Shown here: piece after piece, positions 2,436 through 60,044 of the stretch | Position numbering within the stretch: position 1 is the first letter of the stretch | Layout of the letters: every line of letters starts with the position of its first letter | Assembly: GCA_020631905.1 (NCBI GenBank) | Contig: JACKGQ010000001.1 | Coordinates: 229,854 to 293,853, forward strand | DNA length: 64,000 bases | From: Candidatus Nomurabacteria bacterium | Lineage (GTDB): Bacteria; Patescibacteriota; Saccharimonadia; Saccharimonadales; VXPC01 | Reading direction: 5' to 3' | Notes under the pieces: model-generated | Told to the model about the DNA's origin: nothing | The model's database searches: none | Seen by the model: the letters and a program-made list of their open reading frames with translations, nothing else | Program-made: the position numbers and the translations under genes

Positions 2436-3293
2436 TTAAAGAGTCAGACTAACACAGCGGATAAAACCACCGCCCTTAACTAGCTCGGTTACGTTCGGAC
2501 TAAGCACGTTGTAACCTCTATCACGTAACTCACTTGCCAGATTATGAGCGTGATTGCTCATAATTACGGTTTTTCCTGTACTAACTAGGTTGCACGCGAA
2601 ACCAGTTTTAGCTTCGTCGAAGCTAACCTCGATTTTATCAATATCTGTTAGTGCACGGATTTTGGCTTGGCTTTCGGGCAGCAAGGCATCCGGGCAATAC
2701 GCGATGGTGTGGTCGTCGATGACCGCAAGCGCAAGATCGAGATCGTAAAAGAAGCTATCTGGCCAGCCGGTGACCGGATTGATGACCGGTTGGTTGTCGG
2801 CACCTAGCTCTGGAATAGCTTGCACACCGATAACAGTTTTACCAAATTCGCGTCCGAGCATGTCGTGCACCTCGGGGCTGGTGCGGTACTGACTACCAAC
2901 AAAAATGTAGTTACCGCAGGGTAGGGCATCGCCCTGGCCACTAAAGTGGAGATCATCTGGCAATTTAACTGTCTCGAAACCAAGCTTTTGCAGCGTTTCG
3001 AGCGCATAGGGCTCTTCTGAGGCGCGTTGCTCTGGCAAATTACTCATGACTGCCTTATCGCCAATTACCAGCGCCCAGTTGGCCGTATAAACCCCGTCTT
3101 GGCTAGTAGGTGGTGCGGGTACTTGAATAACCTCTATACCAGCTTGCTCGAACAAACTTTTGATTTCGGCATGTTCGGCTTGGGCTCTGGCTAGATCGAC
3201 AGGCTTGGAGGCATCCATATGCGAGTTGATCGCGAATCCGTCGTTAAAGTAGTTGGCATCGGACATCAAGACGCGTTGGTTAATCAGACTCAT
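2436..3293 (-). CDS. guanidino-group-modifying enzyme superfamily protein (amidinotransferase/DDAH-like)
   Basis: 285 aa. C-terminal GGGFIRCVSLTL resembles the catalytic-Cys motif of the amidinotransferase/DDAH/arginine-deiminase fold. The size fits DDAH-like proteins rather than ArcA. Confidence 0.65.
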   Translation of the reverse strand: MSLINQRVLMSDANYFNDGFAINSHMDASKPVDLARAQAEHAEIKSLFEQAGIEVIQVPAPPTSQDGVYTANWALVIGDKAVMSNLPEQRASEEPYALETLQKLGFETVKLPDDLHFSGQGDALPCGNYIFVGSQYRTSPEVHDMLGREFGKTVIGVQAIPELGADNQPVINPVTGWPDSFFYDLDLALAVIDDHTIAYCPDALLPESQAKIRALTDIDKIEVSFDEAKTGFACNLVSTGKTVIMSNHAHNLASELRDRGYNVLSPNVTELVKGGGFIRCVSLTL

Positions 3294-3644
3294 AGAAAAG
3301 TAGTATATAGGCCGAAGGCCTTAGGGGCTAGTTTTAAGGAAAGCAAAGCATTAAATCTTTACTAATATTTTCAAGAAAGCAAAGCTTTCCATCTCACTCT
3401 TCTATTTTTGAAGAGACCAAAAACAGAAGCAAAAAAAGTCTTCCCAGCCACCCAAACATCCAGACTATCAAGCTTACAGCTCTTAAATCTGGTAACTTGC
3501 GGAACTTGCTGGCAAAGCCAGCTGCATACAGTCCTCGTTACCATACTTAAGAACTACAAGCTTGCTAATCTCGAGTTTGGGTGATGCTGGATATACAAGA
3601 CCGACAGACATCTAATATCCGAGTTCTAAGATCTATCTCATATC

Positions 3645-3680
3645 AATAAACGAGAAAACCCCGAGCCCCTGAGAGGGCTC
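3645..3680 (-). terminator. rho-independent terminator of G+C-rich ORF B1
   Basis: On the minus strand, stem GAGCCC-TCTCAG-GGGCTC is followed by GGGGTTTTCTCGTTT, directly after the stop at 3693. Confidence 0.55.
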
Positions 3681-3692
3681 TAGGGCTCTCGA

Positions 3693-4127
3693 TCAGAAGC
3701 TCGGGGTAGTTGCCCCAAGTCGACGTCGCTCGAAGCGTCGCCGTTTTCCATGTTGCGAGCCATGCATTTCGCAGGTGTGCTGCGGGTTGGCTTCTGTCAG
3801 CCAGTAGCAGAGCAGAAGCTGCAGGAACTCGCACGACCGTCGTGTCAGCAACTGCTCGGGGCAGTTACGATCCAGGCTGGTCACGTAGTAACCAAAGGAA
3901 TCTTGGTTAACCAGTAGCGAGTGATGAACTTCACCACTCAGATCGGCCAAAACCCGAAGGTCTGGTAGCTGGCAGTTGGAGTTCAGCCGGATGCGAAGGT
4001 AACCACCTGGCGGTGTATACTTGCCGGCGAGACTCACCGTCCGGTTGTCGAAGTGAATGGTAGGAGGTAGGTCGGTAGCAGACATGTCGAGCATTTGGAG
4101 CGACAGTCTGTTGAGGGTCGGGCTCAC
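3693..4127 (-). CDS. hypothetical protein, G+C-rich ORF (island B1)
   Basis: GTG start preceded by AAAGGA. 144 aa with a Cys-containing, Arg-rich C-terminus. Has its own promoter and terminator. No family recognised. Confidence 0.55.
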   Translation of the reverse strand: MSPTLNRLSLQMLDMSATDLPPTIHFDNRTVSLAGKYTPPGGYLRIRLNSNCQLPDLRVLADLSGEVHHSLLVNQDSFGYYVTSLDRNCPEQLLTRRSCEFLQLLLCYWLTEANPQHTCEMHGSQHGKRRRFERRRLGATTPSF

Positions 4128-6834: not shown

Positions 6835-6863
6835 TTGACACATTATTAGCACTCGGTTAGTAT
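6835..6863 (+). promoter_or_regulatory. groESL promoter TTGACA-N17-TAGTAT
   Basis: TTGACA at 6835-6840, 17-nt spacer, TAGTAT at 6858-6863. Overlaps the CIRCE operator. Confidence 0.65.
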
Positions 6864-7196: not shown

Positions 7197-7246
7197 GACA
7201 CACTCAGAATAAGAACTAATAGTAAGAAAGGAGAAGTCTTAGGGCT

Positions 7247-7281
7247 CTAAGATCTAAGCTCTAAGATCCAAGATCTAGAAT
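7247..7281 (+). repeat. heptanucleotide tandem array (CTAAGAT-like, 5 units) in the groEL 5' UTR
   Basis: Units CTAAGAT CTAAGCT CTAAGAT CCAAGAT CTAGAAT end at the groEL ATG. Preceded by GGCTCTA. Confidence 0.85.
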
Positions 7282-8899
7282 GAGTAAACGAATATACTAC
7301 GATGCAGATGCCAGAGAGCGCTTACTGGGCGGTGCGAGGGCCCTGTACGAAGCTGTAAAAACAACTATGGGCCCCAAAGGTCGCAATGTGATTATCGCTA
7401 AAAGCTACGGCGCACCTACGATTACTCACGACGGTGTAACTGTTGCCAAAGGCATTGATTTACCAGATAACGATCCAGCTACTTTAGGCTATAAGGTGGG
7501 TGCCGAGCTGATCAAGCAAGCTGCCAACAAAATGAACGATGTTGCCGGCGACGGCACAACCACTGTAACTGTTCTGACCTACCATATTTTAAATGAAGCC
7601 AACAAACTAATTGCGGCTGGCCACAACCCAATGCAACTCCGCAAAGGCTTGGAAAAGGCTGCCGAAGAGGTAATTGCTGCTCTCGAAGGTATGCGCGAAG
7701 ATATCGGCAACGATAAAAAGCGGGTGGCTCAGGTAGCTACTATCTCGGCCGGCGACTCGACGATTGGCGACATGATTGCCGAAGTTATGGAAAAGGTCGG
7801 TCGCGAAGGTGTGGTAACTGTCGAAGAAGGCCAAGGACTGGCCATGGAAAGCGAAGTTGTCGAAGGCTTTACCTTTGACCGTGGTTTTGTTAGCCCCTAT
7901 ATGGTTACCGACAGCGGTCGCATGGAAGCAGTCTACGACAAGCCAAGTATCGTAATTACCGACAAGAAAATCTCGAGCATTCAAGAATTTTTACCAGTTC
8001 TTGAAAAGCTTGCCCAAGCTGGCAAAAAAGACGTAGTACTGATTGCCGAAGATGTTGAAGGCGAGGCTCTGGGAGCGCTGATTTTGAACAAGCTTAAAGG
8101 TGTGCTCAACACCGTTGCGGTTAAGGCTCCATCTTTTGGTGACCGCCGCAAAGATATTTTGAACGACATTGCCATTTTGACTGGTGCAACTGTGATTTCC
8201 GAAGACCAAGGCTATACCTTTGAGTCGGCCGACCTAAGCATGATCGGTAGTGCTCGCCGAGTAATTGTAACTGCCGACGAAACTACAATCATTGAGGGTG
8301 CCGGCAATCCGGTTGAATTAGCCTCGAGGATTGATCAGATCAAAACTCAGAGCACCAACGCAAGCAGCGAGTTCGACAAAGAAAACCTAGACAAACGAGC
8401 GGCTGCCCTAAATGGCAAAGTTGCGGTGATCAAAGTTGGTGGTGCCACCGAAACCGAGATCGAAGAGAAGAAATACCGAGTCGATGACGCTGTGGCTGCC
8501 GTCAAAGCCGCCCTCGACGAAGGCATCGTGCCTGGTGGTGGCGTAACACCTGTAAACTTAGCTGTTGCGATCGACGACACCGACTCTGGTGCCGCTATCT
8601 TGAAAAATGCTCTCGAACAACCATTCCGAATCTTACTAACCAACAGTGGTTTGAATGCCGACGAGTGGCTGCCGCAAGTTAAGGCCGGTAAGCCGGGTAT
8701 GGGACTAGACGTCAATAATCCAAGTAAATTGGTAGACATGAAGGCCAGTGGAATCGTCGACCCTGCTCGGGTAACACGCGAAGCCATCCAGAACGCAGTC
8801 TCGATTGCCGGCACCAGCATGACCATGGGTGCGCTTGTAGTCGACGAGCCAGAAGACAAGTCGGCTGGTGGTGCTCCTGATATGTCTGGCATGATGTAA
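7280..8899 (+). CDS. groEL: chaperonin GroEL
   Basis: 539 aa. Contains TMGPKGRNV, AGDGTTTVTVL and a C-terminal GGAPDMSGMM tail. Confidence 0.98.
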   Translation: MSKRIYYDADARERLLGGARALYEAVKTTMGPKGRNVIIAKSYGAPTITHDGVTVAKGIDLPDNDPATLGYKVGAELIKQAANKMNDVAGDGTTTVTVLTYHILNEANKLIAAGHNPMQLRKGLEKAAEEVIAALEGMREDIGNDKKRVAQVATISAGDSTIGDMIAEVMEKVGREGVVTVEEGQGLAMESEVVEGFTFDRGFVSPYMVTDSGRMEAVYDKPSIVITDKKISSIQEFLPVLEKLAQAGKKDVVLIAEDVEGEALGALILNKLKGVLNTVAVKAPSFGDRRKDILNDIAILTGATVISEDQGYTFESADLSMIGSARRVIVTADETTIIEGAGNPVELASRIDQIKTQSTNASSEFDKENLDKRAAALNGKVAVIKVGGATETEIEEKKYRVDDAVAAVKAALDEGIVPGGGVTPVNLAVAIDDTDSGAAILKNALEQPFRILLTNSGLNADEWLPQVKAGKPGMGLDVNNPSKLVDMKASGIVDPARVTREAIQNAVSIAGTSMTMGALVVDEPEDKSAGGAPDMSGMM

Positions 8900-30996: not shown

Positions 30997-33639
30997 ATGA
31001 GCAAGAGGTTAGTGATTATCGATGGCATGTCCGTCTTCTACCGGGGCTACTATGCCATGCCTAGCCTGAGCACCAAAGACGGCACACCGACAGGGGGTGT
31101 TTATGGTTTTACAAGCCTGGCACTCGAGATTATCAAGCAACTCGAACCAAATTATGTATGCGTAGCATGGGACAAGTCAAAAACAAGTACTCGCAAGCGC
31201 CTAGATCTATATCCGGAATACAAAGCTGGCCGCAAACCACCTCCACCAGATTTTTATGCTCAGATACCAATTTTAAAAGAATTGCTCGAAGCATTCAGTT
31301 GGCCGCTGTATGAATGCGATGATTATGAAGCCGACGATATCATTGCGACCCTTGCCAAGAAAGCCGAGGCCAAAGACATCCAAACAATTATTATCGGTTC
31401 GGATTTGGACTTGCTCCAAGCGGTGACCGCTAAGACACACATGTACGCGCTCAAGAAAGGCTTTAGTAACATTCAACAGTTCGACGAAGCCGAATTCGAG
31501 AATAAATATGGTATTAAAGTTGAGCAGTTTATTGATCTAAAAGCAATCATGGGAGATGGCAGCGACAATATCCCAGGTGTTTCCGGTATCGGCAAAAAAG
31601 GCGCTGCCGAGTTATTGCAACAGTTTGGCACGCTCGAGAATGTTTACGAAAATCTTGATCTTGTAAAAGAGTCGATGCGTAAAAAACTAGAAGCTAGTCG
31701 AGACATGGCTTTCTTGAGCAAAAAAATCGTCACCCTTATGCTCGACGCACCGGTCGATCTGGATTTAAAAGCTATGGATGTGAATGATGTCGATGCAGCT
31801 AGGGTGCGGGCAGATCTCCAAAAACTTGAATTTCATAGTCTGCTGCGTAGTTTGCCAAAGACGATGGTAGACGCAGCGGCTCCAATTTTGGCACCGCAAT
31901 CTAGCAGTAAGCTTACTTTACCCAAAGTGCACATACACAATCGTCTCGACAATTTTTCGGATATCGACACAAGCAAACCTGTGTTTACGCACGTTTTTTG
32001 TAAGGGTAGATTTGGTGATGACCCTCAGGCTGTGCTCCTAGCCAACGACAACAAATCTCTACATATCTACAAGTCCGTCGGCCCAGAACTCAGAACTCAG
32101 AACTCAGAACTCAGAATCTATGGTTATGCCACTAAGCATAGCTTACAGATGTTGATCAGGCATGGTTTTGAGCAAGTCGAAGTCGAGCACGATATTAAAG
32201 TCGGAGCATTTTTAATAAATCCTTTGATTCGTGAACAATCGTTGAGTGCAATCGCTCTGAGCGATGCAGGCTACGATATCGAGCTGGATGATCTAGATGT
32301 TCAGGAGTTTATTTCGAAAGCACCAGAAATGTGCGCGATTATCCATGCAGTTGTCGACAAGCAAAAAGATGTAATGCAGAAGACAGGCCGACTTAAAAAG
32401 CTCGCAGAGGATATCGAGTGGCCAGTAATACCAGTATTAGCGCGAATCGAGCTCGCTGGCATGAAACTCGACGCCGACTATTTACGTAAAATGGGCGAAG
32501 AGATGTCTGGCAAGATTAGCGATCTTGAGCAAACTATTTACGGCTACGCCGACGAACAGTTCAATATCAGCAGTCCAACTCAGCTTGCCGATATTCTATA
32601 CGACAAATTAGGTCTACCAACTCAAGGCGTAAAAAAAGGCAAAACAGGCTACAGCACGGCTGCCAGCGAGCTGTCTAAACTCCGTAACCTTCATCCAATT
32701 ATCGAATACATTAGCGAATATCGGGAGCTTACAAAGCTCAAGAGTACATATATAGATACCTTGCCAGAACACCAAGGTGCCGATGGCCGAGTACGTAGCG
32801 ATTTACGCCTGACTGTGGCGGCTACCGGACGCTTGAGCAGCAGTGAACCGAACCTCCAGAATATCCCTGTTCGTAGCGAAGTTGGCAAAAAAATTCGGAA
32901 TGCGTTTGTTGCCGAACCAGGTAACTTGCTTGTTAGTGCCGACTATAGCCAGTTCGAGCTGCGTCTAGCAGCCGTACTTGCCGGCGATAACGACATGGTC
33001 GAAGCTTTTAATAGTGACGAAGACATCCATACACTTACCGCAAGCCAGGTATTTGGCGTGGCACTAGAAGATGTGACGCGCGAGATGCGCTACGATGCCA
33101 AGACTGTTAACTTTGGTATTCTTTACGGCCAGGGTAGTCATGGTCTAGCCCAACAAACGGGTATGAGCTATGGGGAGGCCAAAGAGTTTATCGACAAATA
33201 TTTCGAAAAGCGGGCTGCTATACGCGAGTACATCAAGCACCTGCGCGAGCAAGCCAAAGAGCAGGGCTACGTCGAAACGATGTTTGGCAGACGTCGGCCA
33301 ACACCAGATGTTGCCAGCAGTAACTTTATCGTCCGCGAGGCAGCTTACCGCCAGGCAGTTAATATGCCAATTCAGGGGAGTGAAGCCGATTTAATGAAGA
33401 TGGCGATGATTAAACTCGAGAACGAGTTTAATCATAGTTCTGAGTTCATGGTTCTAAGTTCTAAGCAGAAACCACGGCAGATTATGCAGGTCCATGACTC
33501 GATCATCGTAGAATGTCGTGAGCAAGATGCCGAAAAGGTTAGCAAGTTAATGAAAGAAACTATGGAAAACATCTACCCAAGCCTCGAGATTAAACTCAAG
33601 GTAGATGTATCCGTAGGCACCAATTGGGGAGATCTTTAA
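30997..33639 (+). CDS. polA: DNA polymerase I
   Basis: 880 aa. 5' nuclease domain, central domain, and polymerase motifs DYSQFELRLAA, RYDAKTVNFGILYG and QVHDS. Confidence 0.97.
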   Translation: MSKRLVIIDGMSVFYRGYYAMPSLSTKDGTPTGGVYGFTSLALEIIKQLEPNYVCVAWDKSKTSTRKRLDLYPEYKAGRKPPPPDFYAQIPILKELLEAFSWPLYECDDYEADDIIATLAKKAEAKDIQTIIIGSDLDLLQAVTAKTHMYALKKGFSNIQQFDEAEFENKYGIKVEQFIDLKAIMGDGSDNIPGVSGIGKKGAAELLQQFGTLENVYENLDLVKESMRKKLEASRDMAFLSKKIVTLMLDAPVDLDLKAMDVNDVDAARVRADLQKLEFHSLLRSLPKTMVDAAAPILAPQSSSKLTLPKVHIHNRLDNFSDIDTSKPVFTHVFCKGRFGDDPQAVLLANDNKSLHIYKSVGPELRTQNSELRIYGYATKHSLQMLIRHGFEQVEVEHDIKVGAFLINPLIREQSLSAIALSDAGYDIELDDLDVQEFISKAPEMCAIIHAVVDKQKDVMQKTGRLKKLAEDIEWPVIPVLARIELAGMKLDADYLRKMGEEMSGKISDLEQTIYGYADEQFNISSPTQLADILYDKLGLPTQGVKKGKTGYSTAASELSKLRNLHPIIEYISEYRELTKLKSTYIDTLPEHQGADGRVRSDLRLTVAATGRLSSSEPNLQNIPVRSEVGKKIRNAFVAEPGNLLVSADYSQFELRLAAVLAGDNDMVEAFNSDEDIHTLTASQVFGVALEDVTREMRYDAKTVNFGILYGQGSHGLAQQTGMSYGEAKEFIDKYFEKRAAIREYIKHLREQAKEQGYVETMFGRRRPTPDVASSNFIVREAAYRQAVNMPIQGSEADLMKMAMIKLENEFNHSSEFMVLSSKQKPRQIMQVHDSIIVECREQDAEKVSKLMKETMENIYPSLEIKLKVDVSVGTNWGDL
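32084..32118 (+). repeat. heptanucleotide tandem array (CAGAACT x4 plus 1 degenerate) inside polA
   Basis: CAGAACT CAGAACT CAGAACT CAGAACT CAGAATC, translated as PELRTQNSELRI. Confidence 0.9.
33436..33463 (+). repeat. heptanucleotide tandem array (AGTTCTN-like, 4 units; reverse complement of the AGAACT core) inside polA
   Basis: AGTTCTG AGTTCAT GGTTCTA AGTTCTA, translated as SSEFMVLSS. Confidence 0.8.
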
Positions 33640-41861: not shown

Positions 41862-42242
41862 CTATTTATTAGCTGGTGCCTTTTTAGGAGCAGCTTTTTT
41901 TGGAGCTGGCTTAGCAGCTGGAGTTTTCTTAGCTGGTGCCTTTTTGGCAGCCGGTTTCTTAGCTGTTGAGCTAGGCTTTGAGCCGGCTTGCTTGGCCGCA
42001 TTGGCAACTTGGGCCTTTTTGCGGGCGGCTTTATTTTTGTGAATCACGTTCTTTTTGGCAGCTTTATCGATTGCACTGTCGACGGCAACTTTAGTGGCCT
42101 GGATATCGGCAGATTTTCCACCCTTTATGGCTGCCTGGAAAGCTTTTAATGCATCACGGACTCGACGCTTGGCAACACTGTTGCGTTTGGTGGCCGCGTT
42201 AGTCTGCTTAACACGCTTTTTTGCAGATTTTATGATTGGCAT
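41862..42242 (-). CDS. rpsT: 30S ribosomal protein S20 with Lys/Ala/Pro-rich C-terminal extension
   Basis: N-terminus MPIIKSAKKRVKQ...; the last roughly 40 aa are AKKPAAKKAPAKKTPAAKPAPKKAAPKKAPANK. Confidence 0.9.
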   Translation of the reverse strand: MPIIKSAKKRVKQTNAATKRNSVAKRRVRDALKAFQAAIKGGKSADIQATKVAVDSAIDKAAKKNVIHKNKAARKKAQVANAAKQAGSKPSSTAKKPAAKKAPAKKTPAAKPAPKKAAPKKAPANK

Positions 42243-44910: not shown

Positions 44911-45810
44911 ATGAGTGCAAGAAGCCGTCATACACCTACTTTGAGTGGCAGACTAGATATGGTCTTCCCGAATGACCCGATGTCCGAGGCCCGTAGCAGT
45001 GGGCGAATGGTGGTTCAGGAATTTACCTGGGGCGATGCATTGAGTAAAGTTGTCGAACAACTAGATATTAGCGTAGCAGATGCCCTAAAAATGCTCGGCA
45101 TATCTTTGGAGACCGTCCAGAACAGTGGCGTGATCAAGCTGACCGATGGGGCATATGCCGAATATCAGGAAGACCGGGTCGATGAACTGGCTAGAACAAT
45201 CGCTACGCAGATACAGCCAGAAATCGAAAGAATTGGGTTGCGATTCGAGGAGCTTAAGGCTGGTTGGCGTGTTGAGGAGGATCGTCTGGATAGCTACCAA
45301 AAACTAGCTGAGATGCTCCTAAATTATGCTAGTGAGACAGATAATCTGCATGAAGACCTTAACTCTCAAGCAAGACATTTTCCACCTCGCACAGCTCTAA
45401 GATATGCAATTTATGAACTCAGGGATTTTAATGACGATCTTCAGGCTAGACTCCGGGATATGGCCGGTCGCTTAGAAAAAAGTGCACACCTACTATCGTT
45501 AGCCGATCTGGCGACAGGTGTACTTGAAGCCGGTCTCTCAAGTTCTTACGGACAACTAATTACCTCTAGGGCTCTAGCTTCGACCATAGAAGCTATTTTG
45601 CAGGGGCATCGTTACGACGTTTCGCGCGTCTTGGTTGATCGACTTCTGGTTGGTGACACTCAGCTAGATGTTTTTAGGAGACAACTACGAACCGAAGCAT
45701 ATGAGTACTGCTTGGCCGAAGCTCGAGACAGGTGGCAGCAGGTTGCCGAAGTTGTCTTTCTAGCCGAAGATCCATACTACTTAAGAGTTAAAAACGGTCA
45801 AGAACAATAA
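44911..45810 (+). CDS. hypothetical protein (299 aa)
   Basis: Long helical-looking ORF. No motif recognised. Confidence 0.55.
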   Translation: MSARSRHTPTLSGRLDMVFPNDPMSEARSSGRMVVQEFTWGDALSKVVEQLDISVADALKMLGISLETVQNSGVIKLTDGAYAEYQEDRVDELARTIATQIQPEIERIGLRFEELKAGWRVEEDRLDSYQKLAEMLLNYASETDNLHEDLNSQARHFPPRTALRYAIYELRDFNDDLQARLRDMAGRLEKSAHLLSLADLATGVLEAGLSSSYGQLITSRALASTIEAILQGHRYDVSRVLVDRLLVGDTQLDVFRRQLRTEAYEYCLAEARDRWQQVAEVVFLAEDPYYLRVKNGQEQ

Positions 45811-58354: not shown

Positions 58355-58379
58355 TATATTTTTAAAGATTGCAAAACAT

Positions 58380-58408
58380 TTGCATGCGACCACTGTTAGT
58401 GATACAAT
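58380..58408 (+). promoter_or_regulatory. rpsF operon promoter TTGCAT-N17-TACAAT
   Basis: TTGCAT at 58380-58385 and TACAAT at 58403-58408. Divergent from the ncRNA promoter. Confidence 0.6.
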
Positions 58409-58848: not shown

Positions 58849-58974
58849 CTTTTAAGAATGGAAAGGAGGCTTCGCTAGCAGAGGGAAAAGAGCAGCCGGA
58901 AGTTTGGATTCATTCCAAACACCGCGCGCCGAGAAAAACCGTAGGTTTGTCTTGGATAGCGAAGCGAAAATAGT

Positions 58975-59472: not shown

Positions 59473-59751
59473 ATGAGCGAACACGAGAATTTAATATGTG
59501 TCGAAGGCAAAAGGTGCTCGAACTGTCCATTTGTGGGTAATGTTGCCGTGAAAGCAGTTATCGTTGATCGTCGTGATGGTTCGTTAACAGTTGACTATGT
59601 CGACGGCACCGAACCGGCACCTGAAAGAGATCAAGCTGATTCTGCGAATGCTAAGGATGCAAAGATGCTGATTCGTTTTGGTGTATGCTCGAGCCATGGC
59701 TCATGGGACACTGAAAAATACAGCGAACTAAATGAAAATATGATGGGCTAA
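59473..59751 (+). CDS. hypothetical protein (92 aa) inserted between ssb and rpsR
   Basis: ATG ORF with a CxxC-containing N-terminus (CVEGKRCSNCPF). No family recognised. Confidence 0.45.
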   Translation: MSEHENLICVEGKRCSNCPFVGNVAVKAVIVDRRDGSLTVDYVDGTEPAPERDQADSANAKDAKMLIRFGVCSSHGSWDTEKYSELNENMMG

Positions 59752-59782
59752 ATAACTAGAATTAAATTAAGAAAGGAGATGA

Positions 59783-59824
59783 GGCTCTAGCTCTATGAAC
59801 TTAGAACTATGAACTCAGAACTAA
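59783..59824 (+). repeat. heptanucleotide tandem array (GAACTNA-like, 6 units) in the rpsR 5' UTR
   Basis: GGCTCTA GCTCTAT GAACTTA GAACTAT GAACTCA GAACTAA, ending 3 nt before ATG 59828. Confidence 0.85.
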
Positions 59825-59827
59825 AAC

Positions 59828-60040
59828 ATGAAAGATGCTAAGAAAATTAAAAGTGATCACACTGGGTCAATCTATTTCGACCACAAAGACGTCAAAGCGT
59901 TACAGCGCTTTACCGACCAGTTTGGTCAGATACACCCACGCAAAAAGACAGGGCTAACAGAGATGCAGCAGCGTCGATTAAGCCGTGCAGTTAAGCGGGC
60001 TAGGCACCTAGCACTATTACCATTCGTTTCACGAGGATAG
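59828..60040 (+). CDS. rpsR: 30S ribosomal protein S18
   Basis: 70 aa. RRLSRAVKRARHLALLPF. Confidence 0.92.
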   Translation: MKDAKKIKSDHTGSIYFDHKDVKALQRFTDQFGQIHPRKKTGLTEMQQRRLSRAVKRARHLALLPFVSRG

Positions 60041-60044
60041 ATCG

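Follow-up and report, generated by a model that had tools for sequence, protein, structure and literature searches.

The closest described counterparts of the repeats analyzed here are the TAACTGA intergenic heptamer direct repeats of marine Beggiatoaceae and some Cyanobacteria and Bacteroidetes (MacGregor 2015, PMC4679880). These repeats are mostly in the forward orientation, end ~1 nt before start codons and overlap the expected ribosome-binding site (RBS), most of the respective leaders being devoid of a Shine-Dalgarno (SD) sequence; they occur at internal genes of ribosomal protein operons, a minority is located within open reading frames (ORFs) in the stop-free orientation, and they are missing from a close relative (PMC4679880). 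The functions proposed for these repeats include binding of S1, Csp or CsrA, or none at all (PMC4679880). According to Mrazek 2007, as far as that work is quoted in PMC4679880, heptanucleotides are the most frequent of the prokaryotic long simple sequence repeats (LSSR) and probably result from polymerase slippage. Here we describe a heptanucleotide repeat family, G[A/C][A/T]CT-NN, in a 64-kb stretch of DNA (hereafter the window; positions 229,854 to 293,853 of contig JACKGQ010000001.1, assembly GCA_020631905.1) from an uncultured bacterium of the candidate phyla radiation (CPR) that belongs to Saccharibacteria (TM7). Arrays of this family have split two canonical ribosome-binding sites, those of rpsR, the gene for ribosomal protein S18, and of groEL.

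The rpsR leader consists, in this order, of AAAGGAG, A, TGA, the units GGCTCTA GCTCTAT GAACTTA GAACTAT GAACTCA GAACTAA, AAC and the ATG (feature coordinates are given in Table 1), such that the SD is 49 nt away from the start codon, near which there is no GGAG-type motif. In this register, the array extends from 59783 to 59824; Tandem Repeats Finder (TRF), which was used to call period-7 arrays, delineates 59793-59824, with periods 7 and 14. When exactly six units (42 nt) are removed, the leader becomes AAAGGAGAT-AAAAC-ATG, with a canonical 7-nt spacer. The start codon at 59828 is correct because S18 begins here with MKDAKKIKS and in the nearest relative with the matching MKDVKKIKS; NCBI, too, annotates a 70-aa Ribosomal_S18 on this contig. 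The gene order is rpsF, ssb, a 92-aa ORF, rpsR and efp. At groEL, AAAGGAG is followed by 44 nt containing GGCTCTA AGATCTA AGCTCTA AGATCCA AGATCTA and then by the ATG (TRF: 7246-7277, period 7, 4.6 copies). The original prediction, made from the letters alone, had pointed out the SD, the heptads and the ATG without a nearby SD at rpsR as well as the same layout at groEL, and all these elements are found upon re-reading of the sequence, with TRF period 7 at both genes. Two details have to be corrected: the array described as GGCTCTA plus six heptads is listed there as GGCTCTA plus five further units, and GGCTCTA, rather than following the SD immediately, is located 3 nt (rpsR) and 7 nt (groEL) after AAAGGAGA. 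The GGCTCTA start is indeed common to both leaders, but this 7-mer alone is not rare (14 copies vs 7.4 expected, about twofold) and was rejected as a specific insertion signature.

Comparison with relatives shows that these leaders contain insertions. For rpsR, 44 species representatives of Saccharibacteria were reached via the neighboring genes; an exact-protein look-up of S18 gave no record. In these 44 species, the SD is located 5-9 nt before the rpsR ATG, and no heptads are present at their rpsR loci. In the nearest relative (EF-P 81% identical), the ssb stop codon is followed by TACACTAAGGAGTACTAC and the rpsR ATG. Similarly, in the three closest relatives at groEL (GroEL 88, 83 and 80% identical), the groES stop codon is followed by AGGAGG, GAGGG or GAGGAA, 5-10 nt and the ATG, and the groES-groEL spacer is 8-15 nt long, compared with 83 nt here. 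No heptads of the G[A/C][A/T]CT-NN family were found in the contigs fetched for the closest relatives (~100 kb, much of it overlapping). Because the rpsR and groEL sites and the contigs of the relatives contain no heptads, and their polA is devoid of the 33-nt insertion described below, the arrays are lineage-specific insertions.

The family unit, with the cores AGAACT, AGATCT and AGCTCT, forms imperfect tandem repeats. The pattern GMWCTNNGMWCTNNGMWCT, that is, three consecutive units with up to 1 mismatch, yields 13 matches at five loci in the window, compared with 0.22 +/- 0.42 in dinucleotide shuffles. These loci are the rpsR leader, the groEL leader, two in-frame sites in polA (one per orientation) and one intergenic remnant; no further arrays were detected in 9.6 kb of the right flank and 1.1 kb of the left flank of the window (~11 kb altogether, in a genome of ~770 kb). 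The period-7 arrays called by TRF contain 4.3-4.7 copies (7246-7277, 32084-32116, 33436-33465 and 59793-59824), those in the leaders being imperfect, with 72-84% matches. The AGCTCT and GAACT flavors represent one family because the rpsR array joins both: in the alignment, its first two units are of the AGCTCT type, as in groEL, and are followed by units of the GAACT type, as in polA.

The polA ORF (30997-33639) encodes DNA polymerase I of 880 aa and holds both of its heptad arrays in frame. Each of these is 33 nt long and stop-free in the reading frame, and the forward one is built of the stop-free unit GAACTCA alone. The forward array is located in a variable linker, where the codon alignment with the closest homolog shows that only 3 nt have been gained in total. 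The array in the opposite orientation is an imperfect AGTTCTA repeat, the reverse complement of TAGAACT (33436-33465 according to TRF), and is part of a clean 33-nt (11-aa) insertion that is missing from 8 of the 8 aligned homologs (58-81% identity to the window protein in that alignment), including the closest one. Because polA contains translated arrays in both orientations, the repeat is not dedicated to the position between the SD and the start codon; the arrays belong to a spreading repeat.

A repeat search showed that 59797-59823 in the rpsR leader and 33435-33461 in polA are 27-nt inverted copies with 26 of 27 nucleotides identical, in which the variable spacer dinucleotides also follow each other in one and the same order (TA, AT, CA, A-). 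Because independent slippage would not reproduce the dinucleotide order, the repeat has been copied between loci rather than grown independently; the copying between rpsR and polA might have occurred by ectopic gene conversion, template switching or some mobile mechanism. This pair, one copy in a leader and the other in coding DNA, implies that short tandem repeats can be dispersed by copying and not only by slippage in place.

The leaders are stable across samples. In 5 other assemblies, which come from different samples (Logan, ENA), the groEL leader is 100% identical, and so is the rpsR leader in 4 further assemblies from different samples; for rpsR, the identity was observed with GCA_020428525.1 (NCBI) and with contigs of two Logan runs. 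Because the leaders are identical in independent assemblies, an assembly artefact is excluded. All the assemblies compared represent the same strain (at least 99.98% identity), and the fact that no copy-number variation was seen between them is, for this reason, only weakly informative on switching. The gene caller of Logan left rpsR uncalled, with a 293-nt gap (window positions 59752-60044) between the 92-aa ORF and efp in three contigs (L086, L089 and L338), presumably because there is no RBS near the start. Such inserts can thus cause false calls of missing ribosomal proteins in CPR genomes.

Table 1. Heptad arrays and associated features (window coordinates)
Feature	Position	Strand	Basis and remarks
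Displaced SD of rpsR, AAAGGAG	59772..59778	+	Sequence; the orthologous site in the nearest relative is AAGGAG + TACTAC + ATG
42-nt insertion in the rpsR leader, six 7-nt units: GAGGCTC TAGCTCT ATGAACT TAGAACT ATGAACT CAGAACT	59781..59822	+	Sequence, TRF, empty site in the relative
27-nt core, GAACTTAGAACTATGAACTCAGAACTA	59797..59823	+	Near-exact inverted copy of 33435-33461 (96% complementary; alignment)
rpsR (ribosomal protein S18, 70 aa)	59828..60040	+	Pfam PF01084, E 4.9e-20; downstream of the array
Displaced SD of groEL, AAAGGAG	7229..7235	+	44 nt upstream of ATG 7280
groEL leader array: inverted unit TCTTAGG, then GCTCTAA GATCTAA GCTCTAA GATCCAA GATCTAG	7237..7279	+	
Heptad-like remnant, CTCAGAA TAAGAAC TAATAG	7203..7222	+	Upstream of the groEL SD, in the expanded groES-groEL spacer; AGAACT at 7212; weak evidence
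Perfect (CAGAACT) x 4.7 array in polA	32084..32116	+	In frame, read as PELRTQNSELRI; TRF, 100% matches
Heptad array in polA, opposite orientation	33435..33465	-	In frame, as SSEFMVLSSK; TRF, protein and codon alignments
Short degenerate array, GATCTTA GAACTCG GATATTA ...	3615..3640	-	400-nt intergenic region; one match with 1 mismatch, alignment; weak evidence

The likeness between these arrays and the TAACTGA repeats extends to many features. Both are tandem 7-nt direct repeats (2-6 copies per set in the case of TAACTGA) that are present at many loci in one genome, and in both, forward copies end a few nucleotides from start codons, over the expected RBS, at internal genes of ribosomal protein operons, and give stop codons in all three frames. 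In both families, a minority of copies are stop-free and located inside ORFs, in peripheral or variable parts of proteins, and the repeats are missing from close relatives; the AACT core is also common (TAACTGA vs GAACTNA). In contrast to TAACTGA, the units in the present family are [CTA][AT]GAACT, AAGATCT and AAGCTCT and are more degenerate, differing from the strict TAACTGA unit; the host is a CPR bacterium of Saccharibacteria with a genome of ~0.8 Mb; 5 loci are known in the 64-kb window, compared with 169 sets; and one of the forward arrays is translated in frame. Furthermore, an intact SD is kept here upstream of the array, so that the RBS is split, whereas in 'Maribeggiatoa' BOGUAY most of the repeat-bearing leaders contain no SD and any SD is located between the repeats and the start (PMC4679880).

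Thus, similar start-proximal 7-base repeats are already described in other bacteria, and the G[A/C][A/T]CT-NN family is a further case. Heptamers of the cyanobacterial STRR class were reportedly described by Mazel et al. in 1990. Like the 7-nt LSSR of prokaryotes, a class that the quoted part of the LSSR literature attributes to polymerase slippage, and like the cyanobacterial STRR, the present arrays are period-7, lineage-specific and sporadic. The LSSR and STRR are mostly intergenic and come from large genomes, and they are not known to include either an array inserted into the SD-start spacer of essential genes or a near-identical composite copy at two loci. The Rickettsia palindromic elements (RPE), 100-150 nt long, are dispersed in a reduced genome, in frame in essential genes as well as in intergenic regions. 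The heptad arrays resemble RPE as short dispersed repeats of a reduced genome that are tolerated in frame in genes for essential proteins and in intergenic DNA; unlike RPE, they are tandem 7-mers without palindromic ends.

A crude survey of the window identified no SD 3-12 nt upstream of the start, the range that was scanned, for about half of the genes. Many of the window genes without an SD carry a TATAAT-like box 6-10 nt before the ATG, for example GGTATAATATTTACAG-ATG at polA; starts of this type are located, among others, at 30997, 28722, 61939, 54700, 40050 and 44048 and at 2436-3293 (minus strand). These boxes suggest that leaderless or very short-leader mRNAs might be widespread in this genome. 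We infer that translation in this organism routinely starts, or is at least allowed to start, in the absence of a properly placed SD, which would make the insertions survivable.

The explanation that we consider fairly probable is that the sequence that separates the SD of rpsR from its start codon, a lineage-specific insertion of six units (42 nt) from a dispersed heptanucleotide family, arose by slippage and ectopic copying and is compatible with SD-independent initiation. Under this explanation, replication slippage of 7-nt units would create arrays, ectopic copying (short-patch gene conversion or template switching) would move them between loci, and arrays would persist only where they are not fatally harmful. 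In coding DNA, the survivors would be those with stop-free units or frames and a length that is a multiple of three, in variable loops only; in a very compact genome, the few tolerated non-coding sites would include the spacers directly upstream of start codons. At groEL and rpsR, the ancestral SD would have been pushed 44-49 nt away from the start codon. The two genes would now most likely be initiated without a properly spaced SD, like about half of the window genes, on a G-poor leader in which each of the three frames is closed by a stop codon shortly before the ATG, and the displaced SD would be, at most, a standby ribosome-loading site.

Several observations weigh against this explanation. 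Both displaced SDs are still perfect AAAGGAG and so could still be used. The forward array in polA replaces ~30 nt instead of adding length, for which simple slippage is no explanation. Two of the three non-coding arrays are located exactly in spacers between an SD and a start codon, which a neutral model has to explain by survivorship alone. The groEL start region is not unstructured: it ranks 41 of 47 in the window by ensemble energy and 13 of 47 by unpaired probability. Finally, the distribution of the arrays is that in 64 kb plus ~11 kb of flanks, of a genome of ~770 kb. The rpsR start region ranks 3 of 47, among the least structured in the window, and this makes SD-independent initiation plausible for rpsR; an unstructured start, which is true for rpsR and not for groEL, was accordingly rejected as a common feature of the two genes.

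Other origins for the arrangement were considered and rejected. A consensus scan, the only promoter search used, detected no sigma-70-like -35/-10 pair in either leader, and an internal promoter or a leaderless start made by the insert was rejected on these grounds; the same scan identified promoter-like sites upstream of groES (6835-6863) and rpsF (58379-58408), and for this reason groEL and rpsR are considered to be internal to operons. Programmed translational bypass of the type known in T4 gene 60 involves a 50-nt gap inside an ORF, take-off and landing codons that match each other and a coding segment located upstream in the same frame. At rpsR, the gap is upstream of the conserved start rather than inside the ORF, the sole upstream ORF is a mini-ORF of 3 codons and CTC at 59814, as the landing site, is not in the rpsR frame; bypass was therefore rejected.

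The chief interest of the locus is that displacement of the SD by 44-49 nt is tolerated at two essential genes. It amounts to a natural experiment: in a genome of ~0.8 Mb, 42-44 nt separate the two parts of the SD-spacer-ATG arrangement of two essential, highly expressed genes, and yet the organism persists. The implication is that ribosomes of Saccharibacteria are independent of SD spacing even when an SD is present or, alternatively, that the loss of spacing is made up for by the repeat. Both possibilities are relevant to translation initiation in CPR bacteria and to the role of heptamer repeats before start codons (MacGregor 2015).

The least improbable of the alternatives is a shared post-transcriptional control element, in which the arrays would be a platform to which either the ribosome or an RNA-binding protein (S1-, Csp- or CsrA-like) binds, co-regulating or enhancing the translation of groEL and rpsR. 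The forward arrays end 0-5 nt before the ATG of two unrelated, highly expressed genes, and the same role has been proposed for the TAACTGA repeats, which precede the genes for S1, L3, S4 and S21 (PMC4679880). There is also a start-proximal excess among the non-coding arrays: non-coding DNA accounts for 11.4% of the window and the spacers between SD and start codon for ~2.7% of the non-coding DNA, and the presence of two of three non-coding arrays (two of five loci) in such spacers has a post hoc P of ~0.002, or ~0.02 when all positions up to 10 nt from a start are included, both values being based on three non-coding arrays. This preference is suggestive, real but drawn from a small sample, and is in line with the TAACTGA pattern; it may partly reflect survivorship in a compact genome. 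Against this alternative, the units differ between the two leaders (AGATCT/AGCTCT at groEL vs GAACT at rpsR), arrays are translated inside polA in both orientations, they are missing from every relative compared, which means that there is no conserved regulon, and the alternative comes with two leaders and no candidate binding protein. Neither leader contains a known cis-regulatory RNA, such as a ribosomal protein leader or another Rfam family: at the gathering threshold, the only Rfam match in the whole window is a tRNA, and E-value scans of both leaders gave only sub-threshold chance matches (a human long non-coding RNA model, VrrA antisense and PYLIS), with no credible covariance-model match among them.

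The common mechanism that the original prediction invoked for groEL and rpsR therefore holds in part. The arrays are not a product of chance, they represent one family, and the intact sites of the relatives together with the near-identical copy in polA bear out two of the candidates named there, a spreading repeat and a micro-insertion. The third candidate, a shared translational control element, and with it the specificity for the position between SD and start codon, is not borne out, given the coding loci in opposite orientations, the different leader units, and the lack of significant structure or an Rfam match in the leaders. A dedicated translational-control role of the arrays is less likely than spread of the repeat.

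The wider distribution of GAACT heptads is relevant to a control element. Arrays of four GAACTNN units are present in at least 120 metagenome contigs and in 114 viral contigs, none of them from this organism or its relatives among the matches listed. In viral contigs, control cores of identical composition form such arrays at a comparable frequency (GACTA 117, AGCAT 82, CAAGT 63), which argues against both a control element and GAACT heptads as a special universal motif, and the latter was rejected; period-7 arrays of any sequence are simply common, those of other motifs being present in hundreds of metagenome and viral contigs. Many of the GAACT arrays in other contigs adjoin start codons, and their orientation bias is modest: in a crude test, an ORF start is found within 60 nt downstream in 48% of the cases, on the reverse side in 34% and at random positions in 39%, the difference being in the direction that a control element would predict. 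The SD-array-ATG layout is rare among the 66 start-proximal GAACT arrays elsewhere.

Somewhat less plausible still is a split RBS or a shunt, whereby a hairpin would bring the SD to within ~11-14 nt of the AUG, or the array would be crossed, by sliding or shunting, by ribosomes that have loaded at the SD, such that the SD would still drive initiation. The SD of phage T4 gene 38 is separated from the AUG by a stable hairpin that is needed for function. The leaders described here resemble it in the long insert between the SD and the AUG, which could loop out as a hairpin: the predicted hairpins in both leaders start 1-2 nt after the SD, which is perfect in both cases, and end 10-13 nt before the AUG, and at groEL the inverted unit UCUUAGGGCU pairs with AGCUCUAAGA over 10 bp (7237-7246 with 7257-7266; fold of -15.2 kcal/mol). 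Unlike the T4 hairpin, however, these fold no better than shuffled sequences (z -0.76 for groEL and -0.71; 41 and 46 of 200 shuffles fold at least as well), and significant RNA structure in the leaders is not supported. Further arguments against a split RBS are that the minimum-free-energy structure of the groEL leader also pairs GGA of the SD, that the rpsR hairpin is weak and bulged (-10.5 kcal/mol), that the GAACT direct repeats are unable to pair with each other, that the leaders are invariant and thus give no covariation signal, and that the effective spacing would still exceed the 5-9 nt of the relatives.

Doubtful, too, and more so than the split RBS, is the possibility that array RNA recruits ribosomes or an RNA-binding protein, with initiation 44-49 nt downstream of the retained SD in a standby or shunt-like mode. 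If this were the case, the two leaders would define, in a CPR bacterium, a post-transcriptional regulon of small size that comprises highly expressed genes, and the start-proximal heptamers of Beggiatoaceae, Cyanobacteria and many metagenome contigs would reflect one general mode of translational control.

Highly unlikely is a relay of ribosomes from the SD to the rpsR ATG by termination-reinitiation on the mini-ORFs of the leader. The two mini-ORFs that had been noticed from the letters alone are present, ATG AGG CTC TAG (59779-59790) and ATG AAC TTA GAA CTA TGA (59795-59812), and a third ATG (59809) overlaps the stop codon of the second as ATGA. SD-driven initiation needs more than 0-1 nt between the SD and the ATG. 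The first ATG, at 0-1 nt from the SD, is too close, the third mini-ORF runs beyond the rpsR ATG in another frame, and the groEL leader contains no ATG, GTG or TTG mini-ORF, so that such a relay is not the shared mechanism; it was rejected on leader anatomy.

Even more improbable is a phase-variable contingency locus, in which heptad slippage would alter the distance between the SD and the start, or the polA frame, and thereby switch expression. Heptanucleotide simple sequence repeats in 5' regions are known expression rheostats (PMC8262952, PMC12721329), and the forward polA array is a perfect repeat. The likeness to the phase-variation tracts of H. influenzae hmw1A/hmw2A and E. coli K1 neuO consists in 7-nt tandem repeats in the 5' region or the 5' part of the coding sequence; those tracts are perfect, hypervariable and located at surface or virulence genes, whereas the leader arrays are imperfect, which suppresses slippage, and invariant. 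In addition, groEL, rpsR and polA are essential housekeeping genes and not surface, virulence or restriction-modification genes, the gain or loss of 7 nt in polA would shift the frame with lethal consequences, and the copy number is the same in every independent assembly (a weak test in a single strain). Chance, an ordinary drifted leader or an assembly artefact, without true repeat structure, has nothing in its favor except the small size of each array and is of negligible probability: it has been refuted by the match excess, the empty sites in relatives, in particular at rpsR, the near-exact copy shared by two loci and the identity of independent assemblies.

Several other sequences in the window resemble the arrays in part. 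The stretch AGCTCTAAGATATGCAATTTATGAACTCAG at 45393-45422 (plus strand), in an ORF without a Pfam match (44911-45810), combines a groEL-type start with an rpsR-type end, is 73% identical to 59789-59818 and may be a decayed sixth array, in a coding region. A third GGGCTCTAG, at 3672-3690, is located in a terminator-like hairpin of a minus-strand gene ending at 3693 and looks unrelated. This hairpin (3660-3706, minus strand) consists of CCCCGAGC...GCTCGGGG followed by TTTTCTCGTTT and overlaps the stop codon of the gene 3693-4127; its loop contains a tandem 8-nt duplication, AGGGCTCT AGGGCTCT, which includes the GGCTCTA word of both leader arrays.

Among public sequences, a single viral contig (IMG/VR; L261) contains at 7762-7795 a 34-nt stretch identical to the perfect (CAGAACT)n of polA and nothing else similar to the window; it is probably an independent repeat. 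Period-7 clusters are also present in Chloroflexota, in Herpetosiphon giganteus (L063, 4558-4821 and 8479-8785) and in two other contigs (L046, 9643-9699; L056, 8877-8936), with the motifs GGCTATG, CTATGTT, TCATCCC, AGGACTA/CTTAGTC and AGACCAC/ATCGTCT, often as inverted pairs of arrays. In L046 and L063, period-7 arrays of other motifs flank rpsR; in L046, the array is directly downstream of the gene and terminator-like.

The operon that contains rpsR shows additional lineage-specific features. The 92-aa ORF (59473-59751, plus strand; MSEHENLICVEGKRCSNCPF...) between ssb and rpsR belongs to no Pfam family. Given that ssb is immediately followed by rpsR in most of the other 44 Saccharibacteria loci, as well as in the nearest relative, the ORF is another lineage-specific insertion into the rpsF-ssb-rpsR operon. 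The rpsF-ssb spacer (58849-58974) is 126 nt long, compared with 29 nt in the nearest relative, and contains no heptads; the intergenic spacers of this operon are generally expanded in the lineage. Finally, a minus-strand ORF of 126 aa (41862-42242) contains 15-nt-periodic repeats at 41865-42035 and encodes a lysine/alanine-rich, KKAAPAKK-like low-complexity protein.

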